This document shows positions 6,864 to 55,802 of a DNA stretch of 64,000 nt, one piece after another. Source of the DNA: an uncultured Porphyromonadaceae bacterium (lineage in GTDB: Bacteria; Bacteroidota; Bacteroidia; Bacteroidales; Muribaculaceae); contig UQUV01000009.1 in NCBI GenBank assembly GCA_900544305.1, forward strand, positions 4,612 through 68,611, written 5' to 3'. The notes under the pieces were generated by a model. That model was not told where the DNA came from and did not search any database. It was given only the letters and a program-made list of their open reading frames with translations. The translations under genes were made by a program, and so were the position numbers. How positions within the stretch are numbered: position 1 is the first letter of the stretch; the number at the start of each line of letters is the position of its first letter.

Positions 6864-6893
6864 CCGCCGGTCAGGATATCCGACCGGCGGTTC
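6864..6893 (-). terminator. Rho-independent terminator downstream of the PFOR gene
   Basis: Perfect inverted repeat CCGCCGGTC...GACCGGCGG (6864-6872 / 6882-6890). On the minus strand it is followed by a T-run (rc of AAAAAAACAAAA at 6852-6863). Confidence 0.7.
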
Positions 6894-6921
6894 ATATATT
6901 CACTAATTAATTTATTCAAAA

Positions 6922-9900: not shown

Positions 9901-10488
9901 AAGCGGAGCCAAATCATCGTTTTCGAGCATTTCAATCTTCTGGATTTCGTGAGAAGTACGGAAACCGTCGAAGAAGTTAACGAACGGAACACGAGCTGTA
10001 AGAGTAGAAAGATGAGCAACACCGGCAAGGTCCATAACTTCCTGAACAGAACCTTCGCAAAGCATAGCGAAACCTGTCTGACGAGTTGACATTACGTCCT
10101 GGTGGTCACCGAAAATACACAATGCATGAGAAGCCAATGTACGTGCAGATACGTGGAAAACGCATGGCAAGTTTTCACCGGCAATCTTATACATGTTAGG
10201 AATCATCAACAACAAACCTTGTGATGCTGTGTATGTAGTAGTCAAAGCACCTGCCTGCAAAGAGCCGTGAACAGCACCGGCAGCACCAGCTTCTGACTGC
10301 ATTTCTTCAACAAGAACAGTTTCTCCAAAAATGTTTTTTCGGCCAGCTGCCGCCCATTCGTCCACGTATTCAGCCATTGTAGACGACGGTGTGATAGGAT
10401 AAATGGCAGCTACTTCAGAGAACATATAGCTGATGTGAGCAGCAGCCTGATTACCATCACAAGTTAAGAATTTTTTTTCCTTACTCAT
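6922..10488 (-). CDS. nifJ: Pyruvate:ferredoxin (flavodoxin) oxidoreductase (PFOR)
   Basis: 1188 aa. Two ferredoxin-type CxxCxxCxxxCP clusters (CIQCNKCAYVCP, CLGCGNCADVCP). GDG TPP-binding region near the C-terminus. Canonical PFOR length. Confidence 0.92.
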   Translation of the reverse strand: MSKEKKFLTCDGNQAAAHISYMFSEVAAIYPITPSSTMAEYVDEWAAAGRKNIFGETVLVEEMQSEAGAAGAVHGSLQAGALTTTYTASQGLLLMIPNMYKIAGENLPCVFHVSARTLASHALCIFGDHQDVMSTRQTGFAMLCEGSVQEVMDLAGVAHLSTLTARVPFVNFFDGFRTSHEIQKIEMLENDDLAPLIDQEALAEFRARALNPEKPVARGMAENPDHFFQHREACNNYYDAVPAIVENYMNKISEITGRKYGLFNYYGDPEAERVIIAMGSITQAAQEAIDYLMSKGEKVGLVAVHLYRPFSAKHFLAAVPATAKRIAVLDRTKEPGANGEPLYLDVKDCFYGKENAPLIVGGRYGLGSKDTTPAQILSVYENLALPEPKNQFTIGIVDDVTFTSLPPKEEIALGGEGIFEAKFYGLGADGTVGANKNSVKIIGDNTNKYCQAYFSYDSKKSGGFTCSHLRFGDTPIRSTYLVTTPNFVACHVQAYLHMYDVTRGLRPNGTFLLNTVWTGEELAKHLPNKVKRYFAKNNITVYYINATQIAQEIGLGNRTNTILQSAFFRITEVIPVDLAVEQMKKFIVKSYGKKGEDVVNKNYAAVDRGGEYQKLAVDPAWAELPDDVVEANNDPAFINEIVRPINAQDGDLLPVSAFKNNADGTWEQGTARYEKRGVATFVPEWVVDNCIQCNKCAYVCPHAAIRPFVLTGEEMAAAPFGEENTLAAIGKTFTGMRFIQQVDVLDCLGCGNCADVCPGKKGEKALVMKPLETQLDVQKNWDYCVEKVSSKQNLVDIKSNVKNSQFATPLFEFSGACSGCGETPYVKLISQLYGDREMVANATGCSSIYSGSVPSTPYTTNEKGHGPAWANSLFEDFCEFGLGMTLAHEKMVARIEAIMAEVAASDAPAEFKAACEEWVAAKDNAEGSRAAADKLIPMIEAGKDKCELCARLDLVKNHLTKRSQWIIGGDGASYDIGFGGLDHVIASGKNVNILVLDTEVYSNTGGQASKATPLGAIAKFAASGKRVRKKDLGLIASTYGYVYVAQIAMGADQAQTLKAIREAEAYDGPSLIIAYAPCINHGLKAGMGKSQAEEAAAVECGYWHLWRYNPELEKEGKNPFTLDSKEPNWDNFKNFLKGEVRYASVMKQYPNEAEELFQASLENAQWRYNNYRRLALQQWGQNPEELAK

Positions 10489-10693
10489 ATTTGTTAATCA
10501 ATTATTTGATAAAAAATTACCTCTAATGGATTTTATCCGGTCTTCAAATCTTTACCTTAAAAAGCCTACCGGTAAAATACTAAATGCTTTAACGGTGCGA
10601 AATTAATCATTATTATTCGTTTGACAAAAAAAATAACAGTTTTTCGAAATCTTCAACACAACTCAAAACTGCACCTTTCATCGTCACCGACCA

Positions 10694-10730
10694 AATAAAA
10701 AACAGCAGCGACTGGAAAATCGCTACTGTT
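10694..10730 (-). terminator. Hairpin plus T-run downstream of the WecA-like gene (possibly bidirectional)
   Basis: CAGCAGCGA...TCGCTACTG stem (10703-10728) flanked by an A-run (10694-10702) on plus and a T-rich stretch on the other side. Confidence 0.5.
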
Positions 10731-10754
10731 TTGTCTTGTTTTCTGTCATCCAGG

Positions 10755-11864
10755 CTACTGAACCCGACGTTTCCGTACCTTTATGGCATGTGTCAGCCAC
10801 ATCTGTGATACGGTCCACAACAATACATCGATAACCAGTATGATATTCGTATTGCAATGCGGAAGCAATGCCCAATTCAACACCACAAACGATGCCCCAA
10901 CCAGCAAAATGGAAACCATTGCTGTTTTATGCGACAACCCCAAGTCCAGCAATTTGTGATGTATATGACAACGGTCAGGCTCAAACGGATTATGTCCTAA
11001 ACGTATTCTATGGATTACGACACGCACGACATCAAAAGCCGGGACAATAAGCATGGAAAATGCAACGATAATCGCACCGTCCACATTATGAGCCATCAAC
11101 GGTTCACGCATAGCCAGTCGGACAGCCAAAAACGACAATATCAAACCGATACACTGCGAACCAGTATCTCCCATAAAAATCTTCCTACACTTGTCCGCCA
11201 TACCAAATACATTATAATAGAAGAACGGGCACAGCGTTCCAAACGTGGCAAAAGCCAATATCGCACATCCCCAAAGCTGAACATAAACAAACATCAGTCC
11301 GAAAAAGAACGAAGCTACGATACTCAATCCCGATGCCAGTCCGTCAATACCGTCGATAAGATTAATGGCATTGATAAGAAATACAATTATCAATACCGTA
11401 AACGGCATTCCAAAATACGGCGACACGGAATGAACACCAAACAGCCCGTAGAAATCATTCAGCCATATACCTGACGCTACAACGAGCAACGCGGAAAAAA
11501 TTTGAAAAACAAACTTCGTGCGATAACGCAACCCGACCAAATCGTCCATAATACCTTCAAAATAAAGCAACAGCATGGCACAAATACCAAAAGCCAACTG
11601 CTTGTCGTTGAAGAAACAATGCATGCTTTCGGGCAAAAGCAATGCATTTACGCCAATCACAAAAGCAACAGTTACAATGATTGACGGCACAAAAGCAACA
11701 CCGCCTAAACGCGGCACAATACCAGTATGCACCTTTCGTTCATCCGCATAGTCGAAAAGTTTCTTACGAAAAGAAACAATTAGCACCTGCGGAATGAAAA
11801 AAGCTGTAAAGAGTACACTCAAAAATATACTCAAAACGACATTAAAAACATCTACAGTCATCAT
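10755..11864 (-). CDS. Undecaprenyl-phosphate sugar-1-phosphate transferase (WecA/MraY-like glycosyltransferase family 4)
   Basis: 369 aa, about 10 TM segments. ADERKVHTG..PRLGG and NAINLIDGIDGL motifs are characteristic of the polyprenyl-phosphate N-acetylhexosamine-1-P transferase family. Confidence 0.8.
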   Translation of the reverse strand: MMTVDVFNVVLSIFLSVLFTAFFIPQVLIVSFRKKLFDYADERKVHTGIVPRLGGVAFVPSIIVTVAFVIGVNALLLPESMHCFFNDKQLAFGICAMLLLYFEGIMDDLVGLRYRTKFVFQIFSALLVVASGIWLNDFYGLFGVHSVSPYFGMPFTVLIIVFLINAINLIDGIDGLASGLSIVASFFFGLMFVYVQLWGCAILAFATFGTLCPFFYYNVFGMADKCRKIFMGDTGSQCIGLILSFLAVRLAMREPLMAHNVDGAIIVAFSMLIVPAFDVVRVVIHRIRLGHNPFEPDRCHIHHKLLDLGLSHKTAMVSILLVGASFVVLNWALLPHCNTNIILVIDVLLWTVSQMWLTHAIKVRKRRVQ

Positions 11865-12055
11865 AAAAACATTTATTTATACTGACGGCTACTCTGTTTT
11901 TCAACATTTCATCGTCGCTATCATCCTATTTCATAAAACTCATAACAATGAAAGAGTCCGATTACAATCGCAAAAATACAGATTAGTTTGTAACAACAAA
12001 ATAACATTTCAAAAAATTGGTCTCTATTTTTTGACGTTTTGTCGTTATATAGAAA

Positions 12056-12300
12056 TAAGAGGTTCGGGATAGTCAAATTTGAAACCTCCGTTTTCGTTTG
12101 TCCTTGCCCTCGACTTTCGCTATCTTTTGATAAGATAAGACACGGTTCGGGATAAAAAATAACTGAAACAAGTTTCATTATTTTATTCTCCTCTCACCTT
12201 TCACTATCTTTGCATAAGATAGGATGCGTCTCAGCATAAAACTCAAACAAGTTTGGTTTTCTGCCTTCGACTTTCACTATATTTGTTGTAATCAGGTAGG
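12056..12300 (+). repeat. Three tandem ~83-bp direct repeats containing Bacteroides -7-like promoter motifs
   Basis: Units start at about 12056, 12141 and 12223. Each carries GGTTCGGGATA / (A)AC(T/A)AAACAAGTTT / CGACTTTC(G/A)CTAT(C/A)TTTG followed by ATAAGATA(A/G)G. TATCTTTG (12205-12212) and TATATTTG (12277-12284) fit TAnnTTTG. A TTTG at 12251-12254 lies about 22 nt upstream of the latter. Confidence 0.6.
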
Positions 12301-12512
12301 TTTTATTTGACTATCAACAGATTGGATAAAACTCGCACGAGAACGGGCAATGGATAAGAAAAAGCCGGACTGTTCCGAACCGCCATATTTCTCATGCTTT
12401 CAAATAACTCTTTATCTCACTTGCAAAGATAACATTTCTTTCTGAAAAGGCCATATAAACGGCTGCAATCTTACGGAATAAAAACATATCGGGAAAAACA
12501 AGCATACCGTAG

Positions 12513-12689
12513 CCGAGTCCCCATAACCACAGGCAAAGGTAATTCGTGTTCTTCCCGTACAAGCAAGGCCAAGCCCTTCGGGTTCGTGGAAAAAATCATC
12601 CTCGCCCCGGAGGGCTTGCGGTATTTTTTCCCGAAGCCTTGCATGTACGGAACACGACCTTTTTAAGCCTGTAGTTATGGGAACTCCGG
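12513..12689 (+). repeat. Long imperfect-palindrome element, copy 1 (core GGAAAAAATCATCCTCGC...GCGGTATTTTTTCCCGAAGCCTTGC)
   Basis: Outer arms CCGAGTCCCCATAACCACAGGCAAAGGT / ACCTTTTTAAGCCTGTAGTTATGGGAACTCCGG. Inner arms CCCGTACAAGCAAGG / CCTTGCATGTACGG. Small hairpins GCCCTTCGGGT and GCCCCGGAGGGC. Ends about 35 nt upstream of the ATG at 12724. Confidence 0.7.
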
Positions 12690-12723
12690 CCCCAGAAGCC
12701 GGACTAACAAAAAATCAAATGTT

Positions 12724-43065: not shown

Positions 43066-44308
43066 GATCAACAGGGGTGTATCGCTCTACGGGGCGGTCA
43101 TCTACAACCAGCGTAAAGTGGACGAGGCAACCGCCCGTATCATCGCGGGTAACCGCATGATTACCGACCTCAGCGGAAATCCCCACAATGTCATGCAGCA
43201 GACCCTGTGGGCTTTCGAGAGCTACCTCGCCGCCAACAGAAACACGGAGAAGCCGGTACTGCATATCTCCCTGAACCCATCGGTGGACGACCGCCTCACG
43301 GACGGGCAGTTCGCGGAACTGGCACGCGAGTACATGCAGAAGATGGGCTACGGCGACCAGCCCTACATCGTCTATCTGCACGAAGACATTGACCGCAGGC
43401 ATGTCCATATCGTCTCCACCTGCGTGAAGGAGAACGGCGAGAAAATCAGTGACGCATACGAATGGAACCGCTCGATGAAAGCCTGCCGGGAACTGGAAAA
43501 CAAATTCGGGCTCAAACCTGTGGCAGACAAGCGGAACGAACTGCTGGCACCGTATCTAAAGAAAGCGGACTACCGGGACGGGGACGTGAAACGTCAGGTC
43601 GGTAATATCCTCAAAAGTGTGTTCACCGCCTACCGCTTCCAGACATTCGGGGAGTTCAGTGCCATGCTCTCATGCTTCAACATCGAGGCCAAACAGGTTC
43701 GGGGAGAATTTGAAGGCTCACCCTACAACGGTATCGTATATACCCTGACGGACGATGCGGGTAGGCCGGTATGCACGCCCATCAAGTCTTCGCTCATCGG
43801 CAAGCGCTTCGGCTACGAAGGGATAGAAAAAAGGATTGCCGTCAATGTCCGAGATTTCAGAAACCGGAAGTGGCAGCCGAAAATCCATGATGCCGTCACG
43901 CTGGCCATGCACGGCTGCCGAGGAAACCGGGAAGATTTCATCCGGCTGCTCGGGGAAAAGGGCATTGACGTGGTGTTCAGGGAAAACGAGGAAGGCCGTA
44001 TCTACGGCGTGACCTTCATAGACCACAGAAACCGTGAGGTATATAACGGTTCCCGTCTGGGCAAGAAGTTTTCCGCCAACGCCTTCGAACAGCTTTTTAA
44101 CAGGCCGCAGGATTTTCCGGAGCCGGAATCCACCGGACAATATGCCTCCACACGGGAGAGCCTTTCCGACAACATGGAAAGCACCATCGAGCAGGCTTTC
44201 GGAATATTCAGTACCGACATCAACGGACCGGACCCGCAGGAGGAGGCACTCGCCCGCAGACTGCAACGCAAGAAAAAGAAGAAACGCCGTTCACGCGGCA
44301 TATCCTGA
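43055..44308 (+). CDS. mobB: MobB-like relaxase (MobA/VirD2 superfamily)
   Basis: HISLNP and HEDIDRRHVHIV (His-triad) relaxase motifs. Confidence 0.85.
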   Translation: MVAKINRGVSLYGAVIYNQRKVDEATARIIAGNRMITDLSGNPHNVMQQTLWAFESYLAANRNTEKPVLHISLNPSVDDRLTDGQFAELAREYMQKMGYGDQPYIVYLHEDIDRRHVHIVSTCVKENGEKISDAYEWNRSMKACRELENKFGLKPVADKRNELLAPYLKKADYRDGDVKRQVGNILKSVFTAYRFQTFGEFSAMLSCFNIEAKQVRGEFEGSPYNGIVYTLTDDAGRPVCTPIKSSLIGKRFGYEGIEKRIAVNVRDFRNRKWQPKIHDAVTLAMHGCRGNREDFIRLLGEKGIDVVFRENEEGRIYGVTFIDHRNREVYNGSRLGKKFSANAFEQLFNRPQDFPEPESTGQYASTRESLSDNMESTIEQAFGIFSTDINGPDPQEEALARRLQRKKKKKRRSRGIS

Positions 44309-44342
44309 TTGTCAATTACCAACCATCAAAATTTTTACAGTT

Positions 44343-46370
44343 ATGCAACAAGAAGATGATTTAAGAGGACTGGCCAAGGTCATGGAGTTCATGCGTGCCA
44401 TTTCCATCGTGTTTATTGTGATCCATGTCTACTGGTTCTGCTACAGCGCATTCGTGGATATGGGCATCAACATCGGAGTCGTGGACAGGATTCTGCTGAA
44501 CTTCCAGAGGACGGCAGGACTGTTCAGCAACCTACTCGTGACGAAAGTGTTCGCCTTCATATTCCTGGGACTTTCGTGTCTGGGTACGAAAGGTGTCAAG
44601 AACCAGAAGATGACGTGGCGGAAAATATACGCCGCCTTCCTCGGCGGCATCGTCCTGTTCTTCATGAACTGGTGGATGCTCGACCTGCCGTTCAGTACGA
44701 CAGTGAATGCTACCGTATATACGCTGACGCTCACCGCAGGCTACATTCTCCTGCTTATGTCGGGAATATGGATCAGCCGTATGCTGAAACACAACCTCAT
44801 GGAAGACGTATTCAACACCGCCAACGAAAGTTTCATGCAGGAAACAAAGCTTATGGAAAACGAGTATTCCGTCAACCTGCCCACGAAATTTGTCTATCAG
44901 GGCAAGGAATGGGACGGCTGGATCAACATCGTAAACCCGTTCAGAGCCTCTATCGTACTGGGAACACCCGGCTCCGGAAAGAGCTATGCCGTGGTAAACA
45001 ACTACATCAAACAGCAGATTGAGAAATCCTTTGCCATGTATATCTATGACTACAAGTTTCCGGACCTTTCGGAGATAGCCTACAACCATCTGCTCAAGCA
45101 CAGACAACATTACAAAGTCAAGCCGGAATTCTATGTCATCAATTTCGACGACCCCAGACGCAGCCACCGATGCAATCCAATCAATCCAAGATTCATGGCG
45201 GACATATCGGATGCCTATGAGTCAGCTTACACGATAATGCTCAACCTGAACAAGACCTGGATACAGAAACAGGGTGATTTTTTCGTGGAGTCACCGATTA
45301 TCCTGCTTGCCGCAATCATCTGGTATTTGCGGATTTACAAGGACGGAAAGTATTGCACGTTCCCTCATGCAATCGAATTTCTTAACAAGCCGTATGCCGA
45401 TATCTTCACGATTCTTACCTCTTATCCGTCCCTCGAAAACTATCTTTCTCCCTTTATGGACGCATGGCAAGGTGGAGCTCAAGACCAGCTCCAGGGCCAG
45501 ATAGCAAGTGCGAAAATCCCTCTTTCGCGAATGATCTCGCCACAGCTTTACTGGGTGATGACGGGAGACGATTTCACCCTTGACCTGAACAATCCCGAAC
45601 ACCCCAAAATCCTCTGCGTGGGCAATAATCCGGACAGGCAGAATATATATTCGGCGGCTCTCGGCCTGTACAATTCGCGCATCGTCAAATTGGTGAACAA
45701 GAAAGGACAACTGAAAAGTTCCATCATCATCGACGAGCTTCCGACCATCTATTTCCGTGGTATCGACAACCTGATTGCGACCGCCCGAAGCAACAAGGTG
45801 GCCGTCTGTCTCGGCTTCCAGGACTTCTCGCAGCTTGCACGTGACTACGGCGACAAGGAGGCGAAGGTTATCCAGAACACGGTGGGCAATATCTTCAGCG
45901 GACAGGTGGTCGGAGAAACGGCAAAATCACTGTCGGAACGGTTCGGCAAGATTCTCCAGCAGCGGCAGTCCATATCCATCAACCGTCAGGACACTTCGAC
46001 TTCCATCAACACGCAGCTTGATTCCCTGATACCCGCTTCCAAGATAGCCAATCTTTCGCAGGGTACATTCGTTGGCAGCGTGGCAGACAATTTCGGGGAA
46101 GAGATAGACCAGAAGATTTTCCATGCCCGCATCATCGTGGACAGCGCAAAGGTATCGGAAGAGATGAAAGCCTACAAGAAAATTCCTGTCATCAACGAGT
46201 TCAGGGACGCGGACGGAAACGATATCATGCAGCAGCAGATTGACCGCAACTACTCGCAGATAAAGGCGGATGTCTTGCAGATAATAGAAGAAGAAATGGA
46301 AAGAATAAAAAATGATCCGGAGCTGAGACACCTCATCCCGCAGCAGGAGGGAGAAGAAAACAATGACTGA
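44343..46370 (+). CDS. mobC: MobC-like type IV coupling protein (VirD4/TraG-family ATPase)
   Basis: N-terminal TM segments, Walker A LGTPGSGKS, Walker B IIIDELP. Start trimmed to MQQEDDLRGLAKV (ATG 44343). Confidence 0.85.
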   Translation: MQQEDDLRGLAKVMEFMRAISIVFIVIHVYWFCYSAFVDMGINIGVVDRILLNFQRTAGLFSNLLVTKVFAFIFLGLSCLGTKGVKNQKMTWRKIYAAFLGGIVLFFMNWWMLDLPFSTTVNATVYTLTLTAGYILLLMSGIWISRMLKHNLMEDVFNTANESFMQETKLMENEYSVNLPTKFVYQGKEWDGWINIVNPFRASIVLGTPGSGKSYAVVNNYIKQQIEKSFAMYIYDYKFPDLSEIAYNHLLKHRQHYKVKPEFYVINFDDPRRSHRCNPINPRFMADISDAYESAYTIMLNLNKTWIQKQGDFFVESPIILLAAIIWYLRIYKDGKYCTFPHAIEFLNKPYADIFTILTSYPSLENYLSPFMDAWQGGAQDQLQGQIASAKIPLSRMISPQLYWVMTGDDFTLDLNNPEHPKILCVGNNPDRQNIYSAALGLYNSRIVKLVNKKGQLKSSIIIDELPTIYFRGIDNLIATARSNKVAVCLGFQDFSQLARDYGDKEAKVIQNTVGNIFSGQVVGETAKSLSERFGKILQQRQSISINRQDTSTSINTQLDSLIPASKIANLSQGTFVGSVADNFGEEIDQKIFHARIIVDSAKVSEEMKAYKKIPVINEFRDADGNDIMQQQIDRNYSQIKADVLQIIEEEMERIKNDPELRHLIPQQEGEENND

Positions 46371-46400
46371 AAATAGAGAAAAAGGGAGACCGCTGTTTTA

Positions 46401-46577
46401 TTTCCGCCTGCAAAGGTCGTCCCGTGCCCGCTGGATTGTGCAAGGCCGGGCCCCTCCGTGGTTTGCTGAAAAAATCATCCTCGCACGAGTGCTCCGGTAT
46501 TTTTTCGCAAAGCCTTGCGCAATCCGGCACGGGACAGAAAGGCAGGCAAGAAATAAAATACCGGCTTGACAAGCCGC
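46401..46577 (+). repeat. Long imperfect-palindrome element, copy 4
   Basis: 5' GCCTGCAAAGGTCGTCCCGTGCCCGCTGGATTGTGCAAGGCC / 3' GCCTTGCGCAATCCGGCACGGGACAGAAAGGCAGGC. Hairpins GGGCCCCTCCGTGG and GCACGAGTGC. Core GAAAAAATCATCCTCGC...CTCCGGTATTTTTTCGCAAAGCCTTGC. Tail AAATAAAATACCGGC plus a hairpin. Starts 31 nt after the mobC stop and ends about 19 nt before the ATG at 46596. Confidence 0.7.
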
Positions 46578-46862
46578 AGATGTCTAACTCAAAAAATGAA
46601 AGATATGAGCAGAAGCAACTTCACCCCGATGGAAAGATTCCATGAGATTCTAAACGGACACGGACTACAGGCCATGAACGTAGGTATAAATCATATCCGC
46701 ATCTTTAGGGACGGCCGGAAAATATTCGACTACTATCCGCTGAGGATGAAACTCTTCGATTACCACAACTGGTACCAGCTTACCTATCCATCCTTCGGCA
46801 ATGGCGACGGGAAATGGGAACAGGAACTTCAGGAGATAATCGGCAGACTTTCTGCCGCATAA
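46566..46862 (+). CDS. Hypothetical small protein (the start may be MKDMSRSNF at 46596)
   Basis: 98-aa ORF after repeat copy 4. Confidence 0.4.
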   Translation: MTSRRCLTQKMKDMSRSNFTPMERFHEILNGHGLQAMNVGINHIRIFRDGRKIFDYYPLRMKLFDYHNWYQLTYPSFGNGDGKWEQELQEIIGRLSAA

Positions 46863-46872
46863 ACGGTATGCT

Positions 46873-47124
46873 ATGGCAGCGCACATGAAACAGACGGAAT
46901 GGGACAACATTCCCGAATGGGCCATATATGCCCTGGAATACGGAACGGAAGAGGACGGCAGCCTGAACGAAGAGGAACGGGCCATGATTGAAAAATTTAT
47001 CGGCACACATTTCCCGAAAGGATACACGATGAGCGTGGACTGGGACGCCTGCAACGAGTTTGACCGCTATCCCGCATTTGGAGAGCCTTGCAAGACCTGC
47101 AAGGTTCTTTTTGTTTCACCATAA
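46873..47124 (+). CDS. Hypothetical small protein
   Basis: 83-aa ORF. Confidence 0.4.
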   Translation: MAAHMKQTEWDNIPEWAIYALEYGTEEDGSLNEEERAMIEKFIGTHFPKGYTMSVDWDACNEFDRYPAFGEPCKTCKVLFVSP

Positions 47125-47136
47125 ATACACAGAAAG

Positions 47137-47655
47137 ATGAAAAGAATGACACTGAGCGAATATCTCGCTGTCCCCGAAAATTATCGGGGAGTATGGACTA
47201 CCGAACGATGGGACATTCCCGATTGGGAAAACTTGAGAAAAAACCACATGGGAAAACGTACCCTGATGGTATATGACAGAGGCACTTGTCTGCTTGTCGA
47301 GGGTCTGAGTCTTGAAATCGTGGATGACAGTTCCTGGAAGAAGCCGGAGGAAATCAAGAAGGAAATCCGTGAAAAATATCAGGAGTACCGTACTGAAAAG
47401 GGGCATGAACCGCATTTCCTCGAATGCGCCATACGCTGGAATGATACCTTGGAGACACTGGAAACAAGAATAGCCCTGGACATGGATTCCGATACGGAAA
47501 TGGACGATAAGATCTTCTTCTACTGCGATACACTGGACAGTCTGCTGTCGCTGGCTGACAAAAACGGGGAGGATTTTGTCATAGCAGGATGTTTCAGCTT
47601 CGGTGAATATGAGACTGTCGATTTGGCTTACAAATGGTTGAATAAAAGGATATAG
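47137..47655 (+). CDS. Hypothetical protein
   Basis: 172-aa ORF. Last GC-normal gene before the AT-rich island. Confidence 0.5.
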   Translation: MKRMTLSEYLAVPENYRGVWTTERWDIPDWENLRKNHMGKRTLMVYDRGTCLLVEGLSLEIVDDSSWKKPEEIKKEIREKYQEYRTEKGHEPHFLECAIRWNDTLETLETRIALDMDSDTEMDDKIFFYCDTLDSLLSLADKNGEDFVIAGCFSFGEYETVDLAYKWLNKRI

Positions 47656-47673
47656 ATACTCAATACAATATTT

Positions 47674-48018
47674 TTAAGTATAGATATAATACAACAGTTT
47701 GCCTATATCATATATTGAGAATATTATATTGAATACACCGATTATCAATAAGTAAGCAAGTCCAACTTGGGTGGGGCTTGCAACTGCTATGACCATAAAA
47801 ATAGTTATAGATGCGATTACCATATATATTATCAGACCTATATGAACCAATATCGTTATAACTTTCTTTTTGCAGTTCCTCAAAATTGCAAAAAGAATGA
47901 CTAACAGCTCAACATATATCAATTCTGTAAAAGATGCTATACACATCAGAAAAATGCCTTGTAATACCCACCATGCAGTAGAAAGATATTGAAATAAATT
48001 TAATCGTTTTGTATCCAT
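47674..48018 (-). CDS. Small polytopic membrane protein (immunity-protein-like)
   Basis: 114 aa, 3-4 hydrophobic helices. Confidence 0.45.
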   Translation of the reverse strand: MDTKRLNLFQYLSTAWWVLQGIFLMCIASFTELIYVELLVILFAILRNCKKKVITILVHIGLIIYMVIASITIFMVIAVASPTQVGLAYLLIIGVFNIIFSIYDIGKLLYYIYT

Positions 48019-48041
48019 ATCAAATTCTCATATTAGAAAAT

Positions 48042-48620
48042 TTATGGCATATATTTACTTTTCTCATACAGACTTTCTGCTTTTTCAAATAAATGATTAT
48101 ACAAATCTAAAAATGATTGCGAATATGTTATTTCATGATGATCTTGTCGGGTTCCCACAATATAATCTTTAACAATTTTCTCTCCCTTTATATAAATTTC
48201 AAATGTAAACCAAGGATAGTCTGCTACTACTACTTCTGGAAAATATTTTTTAGAAACGATAATATCACTTTTAGACTCTATAAATACATTACTGATTCTT
48301 TTTATAATTAACTTCGATTCTGCTTCTGATAGCTTTTCTTTCAGGCATGGAGACGATTCCTGTTCAATAACGCCTTCTCTGTCTTTATATACTGAAATGT
48401 TTATTGCATTCGCACCCAGTACAGCTGCAAAAATAGTCACTTTAGCAGAATCAATAAGTAAAGTTCCTTTGCAATTAGCTGGAGATTCTATCCTTGTGGA
48501 ATCAAGAAATACGGTATCACAATTTGCCAAATTGTGCTGTCTGTCGTGTTGACGACAGGCAGATAATGTTAATGAACACAATAATAAATAGATAGCAAAA
48601 TTTCTCATATAATTTTTCAT
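48042..48620 (-). CDS. Lipoprotein (immunity-protein-like)
   Basis: 192 aa. Lipobox LTLSAC. Confidence 0.5.
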   Translation of the reverse strand: MKNYMRNFAIYLLLCSLTLSACRQHDRQHNLANCDTVFLDSTRIESPANCKGTLLIDSAKVTIFAAVLGANAINISVYKDREGVIEQESSPCLKEKLSEAESKLIIKRISNVFIESKSDIIVSKKYFPEVVVADYPWFTFEIYIKGEKIVKDYIVGTRQDHHEITYSQSFLDLYNHLFEKAESLYEKSKYMP

Positions 48621-48660
48621 GAAAACTAAATGATATTTTATACAGTTTATGGCACAAAAA

Positions 48661-48891
48661 TCAATTTCTTTTAAGAGTATCTGATTTCTTCTTATTCGTA
48701 GTCCAGATGTATCTAATAAGAAATATCAACGCAACTACAGCAGAAGCATGAGGAATAATCTCTTCTATAAGAAACCCAGTAAAACTTATATTTACCGACA
48801 TTGAGAGCAAATCAAAAATTGATATAAACACTATCATAAATGCAGAATATATTAGAACTAAGGTACCTATAACTAATATTTTTCGTGACAT
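48661..48891 (-). CDS. Small 2-TM membrane protein
   Basis: 76-aa ORF. Confidence 0.4.
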   Translation of the reverse strand: MSRKILVIGTLVLIYSAFMIVFISIFDLLSMSVNISFTGFLIEEIIPHASAVVALIFLIRYIWTTNKKKSDTLKRN

Positions 48892-49110
48892 ACGCTTTCT
48901 AATTTTAATGGAAGTTTATGATATTCTTTCCGTTACGCTCTATTCCAAAGGTAACATGATTTTCTCTGACGGCCCTCCTGTTGTGCTGAATATTTTCTGA
49001 TATAGCTCATTGATAGACTTGCTTTCCGCATATTGTATGGGGCTCAGGGCTGAACCGTAAGATACGAGATCACCAATCTTGATAAAGTTTTTCAAAACAG
49101 GAAAACAATC

Positions 49111-49566
49111 TCACTTCATGATTGATACCTGAAATAGCAAAGTATCCACGTTAACAGTAGACGAACGTGGCTCACCGTCAGTGGTTATACCATTCCCGGA
49201 TATTGGGTAATATATAGAATCTCCTTTTATAATGAAAACGCGTTCTAATATATTTAAATCCAATTTTATTCGTTTGCCATTACTACTGATTGTAAAAGAG
49301 TTACTAAACATCATCTTAGACGATTTGATGGAAACTGTATCTCCATTCATATTATAAGCCTCAATGAGCGGGGGCATATATTCTATTGTGTCACTTCCTT
49401 TGATAACAGGAGGAGGGCAGTAATTGTAAACTTGCTTAAATTTGAGTCTGACATCAATAGGCAAATCTTCAAAACATAGTGTTTGATCTGGAGATTTAGA
49501 CTTGTTTGAGCATCCTGTCAATAGGAAACTCAAACACATTATGATGATTATTGAGTGTACTTTCAT
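49111..49566 (-). CDS. Lipoprotein; the reading frame stays open for 57 codons past its TGA stop
   Basis: 151 aa. Lipobox LLTGCSN. In-frame extension 48943-49110 verified codon by codon. Confidence 0.5.
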   Translation of the reverse strand: MKVHSIIIIMCLSFLLTGCSNKSKSPDQTLCFEDLPIDVRLKFKQVYNYCPPPVIKGSDTIEYMPPLIEAYNMNGDTVSIKSSKMMFSNSFTISSNGKRIKLDLNILERVFIIKGDSIYYPISGNGITTDGEPRSSTVNVDTLLFQVSIMK

Positions 49567-49919
49567 TTAATCTTATCTTTACAAATTAAATCACTGAATA
49601 CCAGTATATAAGGAGGCTTTTTAAGGGACAACTATTTACTAAATGTCCCTACTAAAAAACAAAAGACTAATCAACGGTCTAAGAGTTTTATTTCATCTGA
49701 TAAACGCCTGATTAAATATGCTAGAAGGTAAGCACTTATAGGAGATGGAAATGTTATTACCGGTAAACGATACTCTATATATTTTACATTATTTAAGTCT
49801 TTTAATACAAAATACGAATATCTCTCTCCAATATATTTTGCATTTGGTATTCTAGTTATATAATCATTTGATAATTTTTTATCAAACGTAAATATAGGCT
49901 CAGCTTTTGATAATAATTC

Positions 49920-50252
49920 CTAATACTGTCTATTTTGTTTTCTTTTTCTTCTTGTATTATCTTCATATAATATTAAGCGTATTTCATCAATATCTCCATT
50001 ATCTGATAAACTTATAAAAAACTCCTTATAATAAAGAGTGGATACCTGAATTATCACATAATAGTATTTGTCTTCTATAGAATATAGGAGTTTGGCAGCT
50101 TTTATACTATCAAAAGCAGATAATACTTTATCAGCTTTTATTTGACTGACTATTTCTATAGAATCTGATATACTTTCTTTATCTTTCGCTTCGCAAACAA
50201 AAGAAAAGAACATTAATAATATAATGAGATAAAGCATTTTCATATCAAACAT
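49920..50252 (-). CDS. Secreted small protein; the reading frame stays open for 82 codons past its TAG stop
   Basis: 110 aa. Signal peptide MLYLIILLMFFSFVCEA. In-frame extension 49674-49919 verified. Confidence 0.45.
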   Translation of the reverse strand: MFDMKMLYLIILLMFFSFVCEAKDKESISDSIEIVSQIKADKVLSAFDSIKAAKLLYSIEDKYYYVIIQVSTLYYKEFFISLSDNGDIDEIRLILYEDNTRRKRKQNRQY

Positions 50253-50581
50253 TTTAATCTAATATTAAATGGATAACGTGATTCAAAATCAGCCCTGTTG
50301 TATGACGTCCTACAGCCATGCAACGCCAATGTGCAATTCATTACGTTCAAACCATTGGATACATTCATCAGAAAATCCTTGTAAACTTTAGGAATAGCGC
50401 ATCCCAGTTTCTTCTCCAAATCACATACTTCTGCTTCTGTAATACAGGGGTACATAATATTAAGCCAGGCATATTCGGCAATATGAGGGGCTTTTCCAAT
50501 CAACAATGCACCATTCTTTGAATGAGAAACTCCCAAATGAGAGAATCGCATTAACAGTTTTTCCAAATCTTTTTTGTCCAT
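50240..50581 (-). CDS. SUKH/SMI1-KNR4-like protein (immunity-protein fold, tentative)
   Basis: 113 aa. IPKVYKDFLMNVSNGLNV resembles the SMI1/KNR4 (SUKH) core motif (lP.dYkeFL...nGG). Confidence 0.4.
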   Translation of the reverse strand: MDKKDLEKLLMRFSHLGVSHSKNGALLIGKAPHIAEYAWLNIMYPCITEAEVCDLEKKLGCAIPKVYKDFLMNVSNGLNVMNCTLALHGCRTSYNRADFESRYPFNIRLKCLI

Positions 50582-50862
50582 GATTGTTCTTTTGTCTGAC
50601 GGTTAGTACTATTATTTCCGGATTATCGCCAAAGATATTGTAAATCAACGGCTATCTACAAAGATATGAAACATTCCATATAATCTCTCATAAAAGACAG
50701 ACTATCTTTATAATGATTGGAAATTATTCAGAATCACATATTTAGTTATAATCATTTTATTATTGATATCATATGAATAAAGCAGTCAGCACCGAATGTA
50801 AATCGCTGCATAACAAGATGATTGTCGGTGAAAAACATTATATTTGCATAGGAAAGAGATAA

Positions 50863-52551
50863 ATGAATACAATAAACAGACTTTCCACATCTGTAATCAT
50901 AAAGACTAATTATGATATGAAACTCAAAATATACTTGCTCCTTTTACCAATAAGTATCCTACTTTCATGCAACCGGGGACATTTATCAACATATAATTTC
51001 GATGAAAAAATACTTTTCATCGAAAATGATCCACACTTGTATCTATCGAGAATAGATACAACAGGATTTCCTCAAATAAAGAACGGAAAAGAGGCGACCG
51101 ATTTTATATTGTCGCCCTTGACACTCAATTACATGAATAACGACTGTTACCCATCAAAAGAACAATTGCAAACAAGCATTCGGATTTTTAAGGCTGAAAA
51201 GTTAGCACAACAGCAATTAGAGGCTCAATATCTCCTTGCAGGAGTGTACAGAAAGGAAAAAGACCTGTCCCTTGAAGTAGATGTCATAGAAGAAGCCATC
51301 GAACTGGCCAATCAGGAAGGCGATAAAGAATGGCTGTTTTATCTCTACAGCTATTTGGGTGACATGTACATCAATCAATTCAACATGTTCCAATTTGTCA
51401 AATATCTCACATTGGCAAACCAATGTATAAAGGATATTGCACCAGCCGATATGAGTATTTCTACCAAAATCCAACTTGCAAAAAACCTGTTATATACGGA
51501 ACACTACCACGACTCATACGAAATCCTGAAAGATTTAGAAAATGATGTCAGCAGGAATAACACTTATTACAATGACATCAAGCGCCTGCTGGGTGTTGCT
51601 TTGTATAAAATGAATCAGTTGGATTCATGTATAGAAAAGATGAATGACGCTTTAGTAACAGAGAAATCACTGAAGCATCTGTTTACCTGTCATTCAATCT
51701 TGACCTATTGTTATTATAAAAAGAATGATCTGGCAAAAGCAGAACAGCACAAAAAATTGGCAAAGAAATATGATACGGATGAAGATATAAGATTGTCAGA
51801 AATTGAATTCTATACATTATGTGCCGAGTTTGCCAAAGCAAATCATAACCTGGAAGAACAGATCGACTGTTTGAACAAGGTAAAGGAGAGTTATACTTCT
51901 GTTATTGATTACATTAGTGGACAGTCGTTGGATGAAGCGATACAGAGCTATACCCGTATCCAAGAAAAAAGAATATTCAATAAACAAATCGCAACATACA
52001 GATATGTTCTAATCAGCTTTCTTATAATCGTATGTATATCGCTAATTGTGTATATAAGGATTCGCAAAAAACAGGTATATAGGATTCTTGTCCTGCAACG
52101 ACAAATTGATTCGTTAGAAAATTTGCGAAACATGAAGGATGAAGTGAAAGGTTTTATTATGCGAGACTTCGAAATAGCTAAGAAGATAGCCATACTAAGA
52201 AATACTCAACAGGTACAGAGCGCAAAATTTCTTAAGGATTTGGAGAAGCATCATATCATCGAAAGCAATGATTTACTGACGATGAATTGGGATCAGTTTT
52301 ATAAATACATAGACCTTTCTTTTGATGGGTTCTATTCCAAATTGGCAAAGGAATATCCCACACTCAATGAAAAGGAACTTCAACTCTGCTGCATGCTTAT
52401 GGCCGGTTTTAAGACGGATGAAATTGCTGCTATCTGGATGAATAGCGTATTCTCCGTACACAAGTATAAGACCAATGTCAGAAAGAAGATAAATGCTCAG
52501 GAAGGTGCTGATATTATAGCTTTCCTTTCAGAGAATTTGTCCTTACAATAG
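50863..52551 (+). CDS. Transmembrane one-component regulator: N-terminal lipoprotein/TPR-like sensor domain, single TM, C-terminal LuxR-type HTH
   Basis: Possible start MKLKIYLLLLPISILLSC (lipobox) at about 50917. TM YRYVLISFLIIVCISLIVYI. C-terminal LNEKELQLCCMLMAGFKTDEIAAIWMNSVFSVHKYKTNVRKKI is a GerE/LuxR-like HTH. Confidence 0.5.
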   Translation: MNTINRLSTSVIIKTNYDMKLKIYLLLLPISILLSCNRGHLSTYNFDEKILFIENDPHLYLSRIDTTGFPQIKNGKEATDFILSPLTLNYMNNDCYPSKEQLQTSIRIFKAEKLAQQQLEAQYLLAGVYRKEKDLSLEVDVIEEAIELANQEGDKEWLFYLYSYLGDMYINQFNMFQFVKYLTLANQCIKDIAPADMSISTKIQLAKNLLYTEHYHDSYEILKDLENDVSRNNTYYNDIKRLLGVALYKMNQLDSCIEKMNDALVTEKSLKHLFTCHSILTYCYYKKNDLAKAEQHKKLAKKYDTDEDIRLSEIEFYTLCAEFAKANHNLEEQIDCLNKVKESYTSVIDYISGQSLDEAIQSYTRIQEKRIFNKQIATYRYVLISFLIIVCISLIVYIRIRKKQVYRILVLQRQIDSLENLRNMKDEVKGFIMRDFEIAKKIAILRNTQQVQSAKFLKDLEKHHIIESNDLLTMNWDQFYKYIDLSFDGFYSKLAKEYPTLNEKELQLCCMLMAGFKTDEIAAIWMNSVFSVHKYKTNVRKKINAQEGADIIAFLSENLSLQ

Positions 52552-52849
52552 ACTTTCTTTGAATTACAAATTATAGCTCTTAAATATCGCTGATTATCAG
52601 TATTTTGACTTTCTATATTACAAGAATAAAACAAAGTATTACCAATGGTTCCTGAGAGGGAATTGCTTATCTTTGCACCATATAATTCAGCCGTAAAGTA
52701 ACTGCTTTTTCTTATAATTATATCTAAACTGATTTAGTATGGAGTGTAAAATAATTCAATTTTCTTAATGCTATTACTAAGAGTTGTAGCACATTATCAT
52801 ACATTAGAGAACTAAATTAAATTATTAATAATACTTAAAATATTGTTCA

Positions 52850-53212
52850 ATGAAAACAAATCGAATTGTATGTAGAAATCTGCCTGTATTGATAATCGTT
52901 TTTTTGGGTCTTTTTATATGCCAGGCGTGTTCGAAAGATACCCCTAATTTAAACACCATCCGTGTACAAGTAGAGACAAATTCAGATGAACCAGTCAGAA
53001 TCTATGGAACAAAGGATGGTGGAGAAACCGGAATTGTTATAAAAAAGAATTATGAAAAAACATATGAATTAGAAGGTGATGGTTTCTCTATAGAAGCCAG
53101 ATGTCAAGATGAGAACACCCTAATTAAGATTAATATATGGGTAAATGGTAAACTTAAAAAGAACGTATCAGGTAATAAATATGTTACAAGTGGATATATA
53201 TCATTGTTATAA
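52850..53212 (+). CDS. Small lipoprotein
   Basis: 120 aa. Lipobox ICQACSKD. Confidence 0.45.
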   Translation: MKTNRIVCRNLPVLIIVFLGLFICQACSKDTPNLNTIRVQVETNSDEPVRIYGTKDGGETGIVIKKNYEKTYELEGDGFSIEARCQDENTLIKINIWVNGKLKKNVSGNKYVTSGYISLL

Positions 53213-53235
53213 TGATTAAATAGAATAAATTAAAC

Positions 53236-53290
53236 AATATATTGACCCATTTCGGGGCTGTTTTGGAATATCTTCAATTCCAGAACAGCC
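53236..53290 (+). terminator. Hairpin terminator at the right edge of the AT-rich island
   Basis: CGGGGCTGTTTTGG...CCAGAACAGCCCCG inverted repeat followed by a T-rich stretch. Confidence 0.5.
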
Positions 53291-53976
53291 CCGAATAGTT
53301 TTATCAAAAATAACTCAATGAAAAATCTATACCTAAATTTTATAACGAATACAAAACAACTTCTGCAATCCTTATTCAAAAATATACGGTCATAAGCCAC
53401 GCTTCACTTGACAAGTCCCTTCAGAGAAGTTAACTCGGAGGGCGAATACCTCCACGTTCAAGCCTCCGGTTTTCGGGACACAAAATTCCCTGCGGTAATT
53501 TTCCGCCCGAAAAAACGCTCCGGTATTGCCGTCCGAGTTGGGGAAAGGACCGGGACTTAGCAAGCGAAGCGACCTACGACGCATAGATACAGGTCAACAT
53601 AAAAAAGAATCTGACGGGAGAACCATGCTCCCGTATGCCGTCCCAATGGATTACGCCATCCGGTTATTCCCGTAAAAAAATCCGCTTCCTGTCACAAAAG
53701 GACACATCAAGGGGGGGACAAAAGCAGCTCGCTCCCAACTCTGCATAATTACAGTTTTTCCTTTTCTTCCGTGCGACTGCGTGTACCGCCATGCCCTTGT
53801 CTGTATGGTTTGTTCCCGTCATTTCCCTTTCCTTTGCCGCCTCTCGCTTTTTCTCCTTTTCCTGCCGTTTTACTCCGTTTTTTCACTCCGTTTTCTCCGG
53901 CCTGCGGTGTAATGTGATGACACAAGATGTAATGTATATCCTAACACATTGTAAATCAATTATATATCAATTTTTC

Positions 53977-53984
53977 TCCTATAT
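53977..53984 (+). promoter_or_regulatory. Bacteroides sigma-A -7 element (TAnnTTTG) for the DUF3945-type gene
   Basis: TATATTTG lies about 46 nt upstream of the ATG at 54030. Confidence 0.3.
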
Positions 53985-54029
53985 ATTTGCGTTGACAACA
54001 TGAGTTATCAACACTAAAAATCAAAAATT

Positions 54030-55802
54030 ATGGCAAAGAAAAATGCACGGGAAGAACCCCCGAAACCGCAGGTCACCGAAAACGAGCAGATGAGTGACAT
54101 CGTGTTCATCCTCGACAAGATGGAACTGATTCTGGAAGCGGTGTCGCAAATCGGACAGGACGGAAAATTCAACACGGTAGCCGCCGACAGGCAGAACCGG
54201 AACTCCTTCCTGAAGATTGACCGCTATGCAGATGCCTTCGAGAACTTCATCAAGAACTTCTGGAGTCAGCTGAAAGACCCGACACGCTTCGGAATCCTCT
54301 CCGTCAAGGAAGACAGGCTGGACGACCCTGCCGTACAGCAGGCCATCGAGGACATCGCCGCAGGAAAAAAGACAAAAGCCGTGGAGGAATTTCTCAAGCA
54401 GTACGAGATTGTTCCGCGCAACAAGGAAAACCAAAGTATCAACCAAAAAAATCAAGAAGAAATGGCAAAGAAAAATGAAACCCGGCAGCAAGCTGCCGCA
54501 GCTGACAGCCAGTCGCAGACCCAGTCCCCCCAGTACCGTTACAACGAGTCCATGATCAACTGGGAACAGCTAAAGAATTTCGGAATCTCCCGTGAATACC
54601 TCCAGGAACGCGGACTGCTCGAACAGATGCTCCGTGGCTACAAGACCAACCAGGTAGTACCCATCAGCATGAACTTCGGCTCGGCCGTACTGAGGACTGA
54701 CGCACGTCTGTCATTCCAGCAGTCCATGGCGGGCGAAGTGGTGCTCGGCATCCATGGTATCCGACAGAAACCCGACCTCGACCGACCGTATTTCGGACAC
54801 ATCTTCTCCGACGAGGACAAGAAGAACCTGCTCGAAACGGGCAACATGGGACGTGTCGTGGAACTGAAAGGACGCAACGGGGAATATATCCCTTCCTTCA
54901 TCAGTATTGACAAGCTGACCAACGAGGTTGTCGCCATGAAAGCGGAGAATGCCTTCATCCCGAGGGAAATCAAGGGCGTGGAACTGACAGAGCAGGAGCA
55001 GAATGACCTGCGTGAAGGCAAGAAGGTCTATGTCGAGGGCATGATCGCCAAGTCCGGCAACGAGTTCAACGCCTTCATTCAGGTAAATGCCGAACGCAGG
55101 GGTGTCGAGTTCATTTTCGAGAACGACAAGCTCTTCAACCGCCAGACGCTCGGGGGTGTGGAACTGACACAGAAACAGATTGAGGACCTGAACGCCGGAA
55201 AAGCCATTTTCGTGGAAGGAATGCAGCGCAAGGACGGCGAGGTGTTCTCCTCCTACGTGAAGCTGGACGAGGCGACAGGCCGTCCGTCATACACCCGCTA
55301 CAACCCGGACTCCCCGGAGGGCGCACGTGAAATCTATATCCCCAACGAAATCAACGGGGTGAAGATTACGGCGGAGGAACAGCAGCAGCTCCGTGACGGC
55401 AAGGTGATTTTCCTCAACGACATGGTGAACCGCAAGGGAGAGGAATTCTCCTCCTTCATCAAGGCCGATTTGGAAACGGGACGCCTGAGCTACTCCCGCA
55501 CGCCGGACGGTTTCGAACAGCGGGCGGACTTCAAGATTCCCGACAAGGTCTGGGACGTGCCTCTGACCAGAAAGCAGCGTGCTGACCTGCAGAGCGGAAA
55601 GGCCGTGCTGGTGGAAGGCATCAAGGGCTATGACGGGAAGACTATCTCGCAGTACGTCAAGGCCAATTTCAACCAGGGACGCCTGGACTTCTACAACGAG
55701 AATCCCGACCGCAAGCGTGACGCCTCGCAGCGCAACGTGGTGGCCAACAATCAGCGACAGGAACAGGGCAACCGCAAGTCAAAGGGAGCCAGCATTTCCT
55801 GA
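54030..55802 (+). CDS. Protein with four internal ~60-aa repeats (DUF3945-type), located upstream of exc
   Basis: Repeats of the form GVELTxxQxxDLxxGKxVxVEGMxxKxGxEFxxFIxxxxExGR occur four times. Confidence 0.55.
   Translation: MAKKNAREEPPKPQVTENEQMSDIVFILDKMELILEAVSQIGQDGKFNTVAADRQNRNSFLKIDRYADAFENFIKNFWSQLKDPTRFGILSVKEDRLDDPAVQQAIEDIAAGKKTKAVEEFLKQYEIVPRNKENQSINQKNQEEMAKKNETRQQAAAADSQSQTQSPQYRYNESMINWEQLKNFGISREYLQERGLLEQMLRGYKTNQVVPISMNFGSAVLRTDARLSFQQSMAGEVVLGIHGIRQKPDLDRPYFGHIFSDEDKKNLLETGNMGRVVELKGRNGEYIPSFISIDKLTNEVVAMKAENAFIPREIKGVELTEQEQNDLREGKKVYVEGMIAKSGNEFNAFIQVNAERRGVEFIFENDKLFNRQTLGGVELTQKQIEDLNAGKAIFVEGMQRKDGEVFSSYVKLDEATGRPSYTRYNPDSPEGAREIYIPNEINGVKITAEEQQQLRDGKVIFLNDMVNRKGEEFSSFIKADLETGRLSYSRTPDGFEQRADFKIPDKVWDVPLTRKQRADLQSGKAVLVEGIKGYDGKTISQYVKANFNQGRLDFYNENPDRKRDASQRNVVANNQRQEQGNRKSKGASIS

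Follow-up and report, generated by a model that had tools for sequence, protein, structure and literature searches.

We examined a 64,000-nucleotide stretch of DNA from an uncultured Porphyromonadaceae bacterium of the Muribaculaceae lineage (GenBank contig UQUV01000009.1, positions 4,612 to 68,611), referred to below as the window. The subject is an AT-rich island inside an integrative conjugative element (ICE), which carries an array of small genes on its minus strand and a regulator gene with a lipoprotein gene on its plus strand. The gene order of the element is DUF4121, a methylase and a helicase, a TraG ATPase, ParA, MobC, a relaxase, a coupling protein, the island, DUF3945, a topoisomerase and PRTRC. 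With Tra genes, ParA, MobC, relaxase and coupling protein on one side and DUF3945, topoisomerase and PRTRC on the other, the array resides on an ICE.

A preliminary description of this DNA, made from the letters alone, had proposed that the island is a cluster of orphan immunity genes, and had noted a sharp fall in GC content relative to the ICE backbone. The fall is clear in a composition profile, with GC contents of 24-38% at 47.5-53.5 kb and 45-60% on either side. Averaged over the island, GC content is 32.0%, compared with 49.8% and 53.0% in the ICE flanks and 44.5% in the chromosomal part of the window. Sister ICEs with a backbone 93-98% identical to that in the window provided the boundaries. 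Similarity to them ends at 47612 and restarts at 53360, and the content of the interval differs completely. The interval is a slot between a block comprising MobC, relaxase, TraG, DUF6926 and a gene for a 172-residue protein, and the DUF3945/topoisomerase/PRTRC block. The features of the slot and of the spacer that follows it are listed below; LP and TM denote lipoproteins and transmembrane proteins, and the number is the length in amino acids.

47613-53359, no strand: variable cargo slot, the AT-rich island.
47674-48018, minus strand: TM114, a membrane protein with three hydrophobic segments by hydropathy, the last gene of the array.
48042-48620, minus strand: LP192, a lipoprotein (lipobox LSAC), predicted to act in the periplasm as the immunity protein for an uncatalogued Rhs C-terminal toxin domain.
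48661-48891, minus strand: TM76, a protein with two transmembrane helices by hydropathy, candidate membrane immunity protein.
48923-49095, minus strand: frameshifted relic of an orphan Rhs toxin cassette (its conserved 5' part), an aligned trace of about 160 bp that includes a 51-codon open reading frame (ORF) at 48940-49095.
49111-49566, minus strand: LP151, a lipoprotein (lipobox LTGC), candidate periplasmic immunity protein.
49671-50252, minus strand: inactivated gene for a 193-residue signal-peptide protein, with a premature TAG at 49920-49922.
50240-50581, minus strand: 3'-truncated remnant of a SUKH (SMI1/KNR4) immunity gene, a 113-residue ORF with its junction at 50260/50261.
50582-50747, minus strand: leader of the array, with a predicted Bacteroides-type promoter (TTTG-N21-TAtcTTTG at 50630-50666) and a 5' untranslated region of about 50 nucleotides.
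50917-52551, plus strand: one-component regulator of 544 residues, with a lipoprotein signal, a TPR-like region predicted to lie outside the cytoplasm, one transmembrane helix and a probable C-terminal LuxR/GerE helix-turn-helix.
52850-53212, plus strand: LP120, a lipoprotein (lipobox CQAC) always found after the regulator; a motif at 52668-52675 may be its separate promoter.
53251-53295, plus strand: hairpin resembling an intrinsic terminator, which ends the regulator-lipoprotein module (19-bp stem with 9 GC pairs and a T-rich tail).
53360-54029, no strand: backbone spacer upstream of the DUF3945 gene, of normal GC content and 94-97% identical to sister ICEs with or without the regulator module.

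The array itself consists of six or seven co-directional ORFs with a GC content of 31.0%. All ORFs listed previously are present at their positions, but two of the six minus-strand genes (50240-50581 and 49920-50252) turned out to be remnants. The lipoprotein or membrane character given to the small proteins is borne out by lipoboxes in the 192-, 151- and 120-residue proteins and by transmembrane segments in the 114-residue (three) and 76-residue (two) proteins. The right boundary was also placed correctly, as both the hairpin and the GC-normal spacer extending to 54029 are present.

Concerning the first of the two remnants, the SUKH-like motif reported at 50240-50581 is real, but the ORF that carries it does not contain a complete domain of about 125 residues above the Pfam gathering cut-off. 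Its match to SMI1_KNR4 (PF09346) reaches 23.8 bits against a cut-off of 25.4 and covers only profile positions 2-36 of 125, whereas a full-length homolog (P0007) gives 44.2 bits for a domain extending over residues 47-167. Searching the protein collection recovered 146 relatives, nearly all with 195 residues and a full SMI1_KNR4 domain, and the closest of these are 92-97% identical to the first 108 or so residues of the window ORF. The ORF loses this homology at codon 107, at DNA position 50261. To the right of the junction the DNA is 96-98% identical to sister ICEs, whereas to the left it is unrelated to them. Because the homologs have 195 residues and the homology ends at codon 107, the ORF is a truncated remnant.

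The second remnant had been taken for a gene of 110 codons (49920-50252). In a Porphyromonadaceae metagenome-assembled genome (locus L026; related loci are numbered with an L), we found an intact ORF of 193 residues, identical over the first 110. The TAG in the window stands at the position of a lysine codon in L026, and the window frame continues open after the stop down to 49671, so that most of the gap of 350 bp (49567-49919) consists of the dead end of this gene. The premature TAG is shared by two independent assemblies, L001 and L002. The SUKH gene and the gene for the 193-residue secreted protein are both dead.

A third relic lies between the genes for LP151 and TM76 (48923-49095), where the local GC content is 40.5%. 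The region is colinear with one conserved segment of three Rhs fragments, over 34 and 18 residues in two frames, with 33-44% identity and a best E-value of 1.4e-4; two further Rhs fragments match the same segment more weakly. We take it to be a frameshifted relic of an Rhs gene because the colinear alignment runs across two frames with three independent Rhs fragments. It is the sole trace of a toxin gene in the island. The earlier description of the putative immunity genes as orphans therefore stands, in that the island has no intact toxin gene. The same Rhs segment has also left relics scattered through three related arrays (L018, L022 and L028).

The clearest link to a toxin was obtained for LP192. 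Its family comprises 39 clusters at 90% identity, and a search of 1.84 billion representatives gave 28 clusters with E ≤ 0.001. All family members share the lipobox cysteine, C22. No Pfam domain was found in LP192 or in the ten most complete of the family representatives, and a PDB sequence search with the LP192 profile found nothing. In five loci (L023, L024, L034, L035 and L043), a relative of LP192 lies directly downstream of an Rhs C-terminal toxin domain. In L023 and L024, at a chromosomal site between thrC and menaquinone genes, an 80% identical relative directly follows an Rhs C-terminal fragment of 395-412 residues, and in L034 the same 80% identical lipoprotein begins 86 bp after an intact C-terminal toxin domain. 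The toxin domain spans about 220 residues after a DPxGx motif and carries a VHEWYSHG motif; it was located at L034 596-1654, L023 8552-9739 and L035 701-1876, and in L036-L042. A gene for a signal-peptide protein or lipoprotein follows the domain in most of the recovered loci (L023/L024 and L034-L041).

The toxin domain and the gene behind it diverge together. In L035, a toxin domain 76% identical to the L034 type is followed by a lipoprotein merely 32% identical to LP192. Toxin domains of 32-41% identity are each followed, with a 4-bp overlap, by a gene for a 207-residue secreted protein, whose profile faintly resembles that of LP192 (hhalign E 7e-4, probability 27%). Joint divergence of a toxin and its downstream gene is the usual signature of a toxin-immunity pair. 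On account of this joint divergence, we consider that the LP192 family and the uncatalogued Rhs C-terminal toxin domain probably form such a pair. Structure prediction is compatible with this role. A first AlphaFold2 model of LP192, made from a shallow alignment, was unusable (pLDDT 41.6), but a second made from 29 sequences, including matches from the representative search, reached a pLDDT of 81.4, with values above 90 in the core (residues 52-190). The model comprises a signal peptide, a disordered tether of 28 residues and an alpha/beta domain that has two long helices behind its antiparallel sheet. A tethered domain of this kind in the periplasm would suit an immunity protein, although the fold is no proof.

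LP192 is also found with other genes of the array in toxin-linked settings. A relative of 65-66% identity occurs in Xylanibacter rarus and related metagenome contigs, where it belongs to long arrays on one strand that lie behind Rhs fragments, and in two of these arrays (L022 and L028, a Xylanibacter rarus contig) homologs of LP192, TM76 and LP151 occur together, along with Imm50 and ankyrin genes. The LP151 homologs there are 81-82% identical and adjoin the homolog of TM76, which is 71% identical; in L026 the corresponding values are 98% for LP151 and 90% for TM76, and an ICE array (L013/L014) holds a TM76 homolog of 94% identity. A further related array, L018, gave one weak, sub-threshold match resembling CdiI (E 0.012, 15.9 bits against a cut-off of 25). 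For TM114, a counterpart of 92-96% identity is encoded by sister ICEs L005, L009-L011 and L013-L017, and no family was matched in Pfam, NCBIfam or PADLOC.

We compared the content of the slot among sister ICEs and found that it varies even between near-identical elements. Many of them hold, on one strand, an intact 195-residue SUKH gene (SUKH195), genes for a 209-residue protein, an ankyrin-repeat protein and proteins of 217, 117, 135 and 181 residues, and more. Others (L013/L014) carry an array of SUKH195, the 217-residue protein and the ankyrin protein, then an insertion sequence (DDE_Tnp_1_2), and then a 193-residue lipoprotein and a 114-residue membrane protein. AbiEi/AbiEii and a PP2C phosphatase adjoin the SUKH-ankyrin array in the same two loci, and the slot therefore collects several kinds of defence cargo. 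An anti-phage defence island was considered for the window itself, with AbiE genes present in the same slot of one sister ICE, and was rejected, as no island protein matched a PADLOC anti-phage defence family.

Related modules also occur away from the ICE. L026 contains the whole window module at 95.7% identity, adjoining uvrA and outside any recognisable ICE, with the same SUKH truncation junction. In four loci on long chromosomal contigs (L045-L048), there is an array of five genes (SUKH, 139 residues, 140 residues, 75 residues and ankyrin), which starts with a SUKH195 gene sharing 82% identity with that of the ICE and is inserted between trmD and pyrimidine-synthesis genes (pyrD), with no recombinase, toxin or ICE genes nearby.

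The segment upstream of the SUKH start is shared by these settings. About 150 bp of it is kept at 80-96% identity in the ICEs, in the chromosomal trmD-pyrD islet and in L026. In the window it contains TAnnTTTG motifs at 50630 and 50659 on the minus strand, and TTTG-N21-TAnnTTTG is the canonical arrangement of the Bacteroides -33/-7 promoter. A sigma-70 promoter scan of the window was uninformative for Bacteroides. The window contains 44 copies of TAnnTTTG against about 36 expected, which is no enrichment, so that weight attaches to the positions of the motifs and not to their number; another copy lies at 48946-48953, 55 bp upstream of the TM76 gene.

Copies of this leader head different genes, create chimeric ORFs and bracket segments that have been lost or swapped. 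In L005-L012 (for example L007 13673-14262), a 244-bp leader copy with the first 27 or so SUKH codons stands before a lipoprotein gene and produces a chimeric ORF of 141 residues. In L030, L032 and L033 (7889-8135), a copy of the leader and a 5' SUKH fragment precedes a gene for a 136-residue protein and the rest of the array is absent; we infer that recombination between two leader copies left this remainder. In L026 (6145-7716), a second leader copy lacking the coding part heads genes for a 166-residue protein, a 168-residue CHAP-domain protein (PF05257, E 3e-8) and a 140-residue protein, a set that lies immediately upstream of the window-type module and could represent a small peptidoglycan-hydrolase toxin with its immunity gene. 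The leader is thus likely to be the promoter of the array as well as a recurrent point of recombination, its promoter activity being predicted from the motif. One could go further and regard the SUKH leader (about 150-250 bp of promoter, 5' untranslated region and about 27 codons) as the handle of a recombinase-independent cassette system, which would move arrays between ICE slots and chromosomal sites (trmD-pyrD and adjacent to uvrA) without a dedicated integrase, with LP192 and the Rhs C-terminal domain forming a new pair with a Mago-like immunity fold. We are doubtful of this extended proposal.

Taken together, we interpret the array as a partly decayed orphan-immunity (polyimmunity) array that originated from Rhs toxin loci and now resides on an ICE, next to an unrelated regulator-lipoprotein pair, and we give this reading a probability of about 0.6. 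The homologs of the array genes share Rhs-linked arrays and the same Rhs relics, and on this basis we see in the window array a trimmed piece of an Rhs orphan-cassette array that was moved onto the ICE. The minus-strand module (Module A, 47656-50747) would be transcribed from a strong, conserved leader that was originally attached to the SUKH immunity gene. It would descend from the orphan toxin/immunity cassette arrays that accumulate downstream of Rhs toxin genes, having kept an Rhs relic and lost the toxin. The products of the four intact genes (LP151, TM76, LP192 and TM114) would reside in the host of the ICE, either in its periplasm or in its inner membrane, and would bind or block incoming Rhs-type toxins delivered by competitors, with LP192 neutralising one specific, uncatalogued Rhs C-terminal toxin. 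The plus-strand module (Module B, 50748-53359) would supply a membrane-anchored TPR-LuxR regulator and its partner lipoprotein, and is present in many ICEs of the family regardless of the array.

Several observations weigh against this interpretation. Neither sequence nor fold comparisons with Pfam, NCBIfam and PDB connected any intact island protein to a catalogued immunity family; a search for such families had been proposed as a check of the immunity hypothesis. Across all island proteins, scans with Pfam, NCBIfam and PADLOC yielded no match over threshold, SMI1_KNR4 and GerE falling just short of it. Support for immunity comes solely from gene neighbourhood, which for LP151 and TM76 means co-membership of arrays, and for TM114 no toxin-linked context was found. 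The Rhs C-terminal toxin domain has no relative in Pfam or PDB and no known activity or family, and those Rhs partners that were found are themselves fragments, lie in decayed loci and are not demonstrably active as toxins. With two of its genes dead, the array is, at least in part, under relaxed selection. The exact arrangement in the window is also rare, being found in four contigs. The earlier proposal of a polymorphic-toxin immunity array on a mobile element is thus supported only in part. The Rhs-linked relatives, the ICE setting and the SUKH-ankyrin arrays of sister ICEs agree with it; on the other side, the SUKH gene that had been its key evidence is dead, two genes are remnants, the regulator is separate, and the support comes from linkage to Rhs and not from known families.

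In a first alternative, the array is non-functional debris, a hitch-hiking and decaying remnant of an Rhs cassette array with no current role. Three relics within 3 kb (the truncated SUKH gene, the nonsense mutation and the frameshifted Rhs fragment) point in this direction, as does the rarity of the exact variant. Against it, four ORFs are intact and their proteins are 90-99% conserved between the ICE, L026 and L013-L017 lineages, the LP192-TM114 pair persists beside the backbone in many ICE variants, and the promoter leader is intact. We judge this alternative improbable.

A second alternative concerns the regulator. The 544-residue form starts at 50917, and the upstream start at 50863 (562 residues) given in the preliminary description is less likely; the lipobox LLSC is read from the M19 start, and the shorter form is the one called in many contigs. 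The transmembrane helix was placed by hydropathy at residues 382-400, and matches to TPR profiles were weak. The match to GerE/LuxR (PF00196) reached 22.9 bits against a cut-off of 23.5 (E 6.5e-5) and covers positions 3-55 of the 57 in the profile. A protein of 99% identity is called a CsgD family regulator in one source, and no TetR match was found in Pfam and NCBIfam scans. LP120 gave a weak hint of an Ig-like domain (Big_7, E 0.16) and no match in a PDB sequence search. The regulator and LP120 are 99-100% conserved as a pair in many contigs, and the pairing was found in L006-L008, L012 and L029-L033. In L029, a regulator copy of 88% identity lies in a non-ICE setting beside ankyrin, DUF1266 and phage-like replication genes.

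The regulator could control the divergent array, making the whole island one sensor-regulated defence unit in which the TPR region would detect a signal from the envelope or from a competitor and the LuxR domain would turn on the immunity genes, a parallel to the TetR-controlled acquired interbacterial defence (AID) arrays of Bacteroides fragilis. Regulator and array face each other head to head across an intergenic region of 280 bp, L006-L008 and L012 show the same arrangement, and published AID arrays have adjacent regulators that answer a released signal (PMC13080023). However, the regulator and LP120 are also found in ICEs that hold merely the leader and one gene (L030-L033) and in the non-ICE locus L029, full arrays without the regulator occur in the ICEs L005 and L009-L011, in the chromosomal loci L045-L048 and in L026, and the junction between the modules (50736-50747) is a recurrent breakpoint. 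Since the pair is present without the array in some ICEs and absent with it in others, it represents a separate cargo module, and a common control of the island seems unlikely. The regulator and lipoprotein had been correctly recognised in the island.

A third alternative, that the small lipoproteins and membrane proteins serve the ICE itself (entry or surface exclusion, mating-pair functions) or have surface roles in host adaptation, is very unlikely, for although the array directly follows the coupling-protein/mobilisation block and weak NCBIfam matches to EexN and TraV were obtained, these matches cover the signal peptide at residues 1-26 only and lie far below the cut-offs, the array genes are absent from most sister ICEs, in which unrelated arrays occupy the slot, their homologs occur in chromosomal, non-conjugative, Rhs-linked arrays, and the array contains an Rhs relic. 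In other conjugative elements, small lipoproteins serve as exclusion factors; as a specific candidate, entry-exclusion lipoproteins were rejected with the sole matches covering the signal peptide.

We then compared the window array with known systems. ICE-borne and recombinase-associated orphan immunity arrays are known in Bacteroidales (Ross et al., bioRxiv 10.1101/471110). The genes of AID-1 are close homologs of immunity genes for GA3 type VI effectors and were shown to protect (bioRxiv 10.1101/471110; PMC13080023). The window array resembles AID-1 and AID cluster 2 in being an immunity-type array without toxins on an ICE, with content that varies between strains and a transcriptional regulator gene next to it. 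On the other hand, AID-1 is defined by close homology to GA3 type VI immunity genes and by an adjacent TetR-family regulator orthologous to that of the GA3 locus, whereas the demonstrable link of the window array is to Rhs cassettes. For type VI secretion no link was shown, though no search aimed at its immunity proteins was made. The adjacent regulator is a TPR-TM-LuxR protein and not a TetR protein, its linkage to the array is inconsistent, and the array is partly decayed.

The recombinase-associated class, rAID-1, is characterised by a XerD-like recombinase at the 5' end (>44% identity to BF9343_RS08045), at least two co-directional downstream genes of ≤41% GC and integron-like intergenic repeats (bioRxiv 10.1101/471110). 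The low-GC (≤41%), co-directional small genes of the window, their predicted immunity to foreign toxins and the gain and loss of cassettes are all in common with this class, as are the SUKH and ankyrin classes, here in sister ICEs. The window array differs in being headed by a conserved promoter leader and in lying in an ICE slot or, in its relatives, between housekeeping genes. No recombinase was present among the annotated flanking genes (regulator, 172-residue protein, DUF6926, TraG and DUF3945/topoisomerase), as judged by annotation. A repeat search of 46500-54200 gave short two-copy matches only, with no repeated intergenic motif in the array; the sole element that recurs among the loci is the leader, of which the window has one copy. 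With neither a recombinase at the head of the array nor intergenic repeats, membership of rAID-1 was rejected.

The window array is best described as an ICE-borne heterogeneous polyimmunity locus, or Rhs orphan-cassette array. Heterogeneous polyimmunity loci and arrays of orphan Rhs C-terminal/immunity cassettes have been described (Zhang et al. 2012, PMC3482391). Like these, the window array is a tandem, single-strand series of unrelated small immunity-type genes with no intact toxin, which differs strongly between close relatives. Relics of Rhs homology between the cassettes and the combination of signal peptide and lipobox in some predicted immunity proteins are further likenesses. It differs in that most of its members belong to no catalogued Imm family, and in that it has been moved to an ICE and trimmed.

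For the regulator-lipoprotein pair, the nearest named system was that of BT3442, a TPR protein at the head of a MACPF cluster in Bacteroides thetaiotaomicron that is followed by the gene for a small Ig-like protein, BT3441 (PMC2954219). Residues 19-545 of the regulator align to positions 1-547 of the 563 in the corresponding profile (NF053779), and a gene for a small secreted protein follows in both cases. The score, however, is 30.2 bits against a cut-off of 940, which makes the regulator at most a distant relative, and there are no MACPF or pore-forming genes near the window pair.

Some further features of the window were noted. Its first 12 kb or so (1-12700) is the chromosomal part and encodes pyruvate formate-lyase, PFOR and a family 4 glycosyltransferase. 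The ICE appears to start near 12.5 kb, at the DUF4121 gene, and no integrase was identified in the examined part of the window. The left boundary of the slot (47572-47655) lies inside the 3' end of the gene for the 172-residue backbone protein, the last 14 or so residues of which vary among sister ICEs. The coupling-protein ORF called mechanically at 44034-46370 (778 residues, GTG start) reaches too far in the 5' direction and thereby overlaps the relaxase gene; the YWFCY/TraG protein called in sister ICEs has 675-677 residues. The backbone spacer at 53360-54029 contains the motif TATATTTG at 53982 and matched no Rfam family. An Rfam scan of 46300-54200 gave as its sole match the terminator hairpin, spuriously assigned to miRNA models, and a megablast of the island against plasmids gave no match.

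For annotation, the island offers a caution. Its sole recognisable domain, SUKH, belongs to a dead remnant, so that domain spotting by itself would have led to a correct idea on mistaken grounds. Mobile orphan-immunity arrays are an established concept, and the advance made here is incremental. It provides a probable new toxin-immunity pair that can be tested, in which an Rhs C-terminal toxin domain is matched with a small lipoprotein family, both of them uncatalogued. In terms of biology, a widespread family of gut Bacteroidales ICEs would have one fixed slot for interchangeable arrays of toxin-immunity genes, part of this cargo coming from Rhs toxin loci with close relatives in a Xylanibacter rarus genome and a Prevotella metagenome-assembled genome. 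If this is true, conjugation could spread resistance to the contact-dependent toxins of another lineage.

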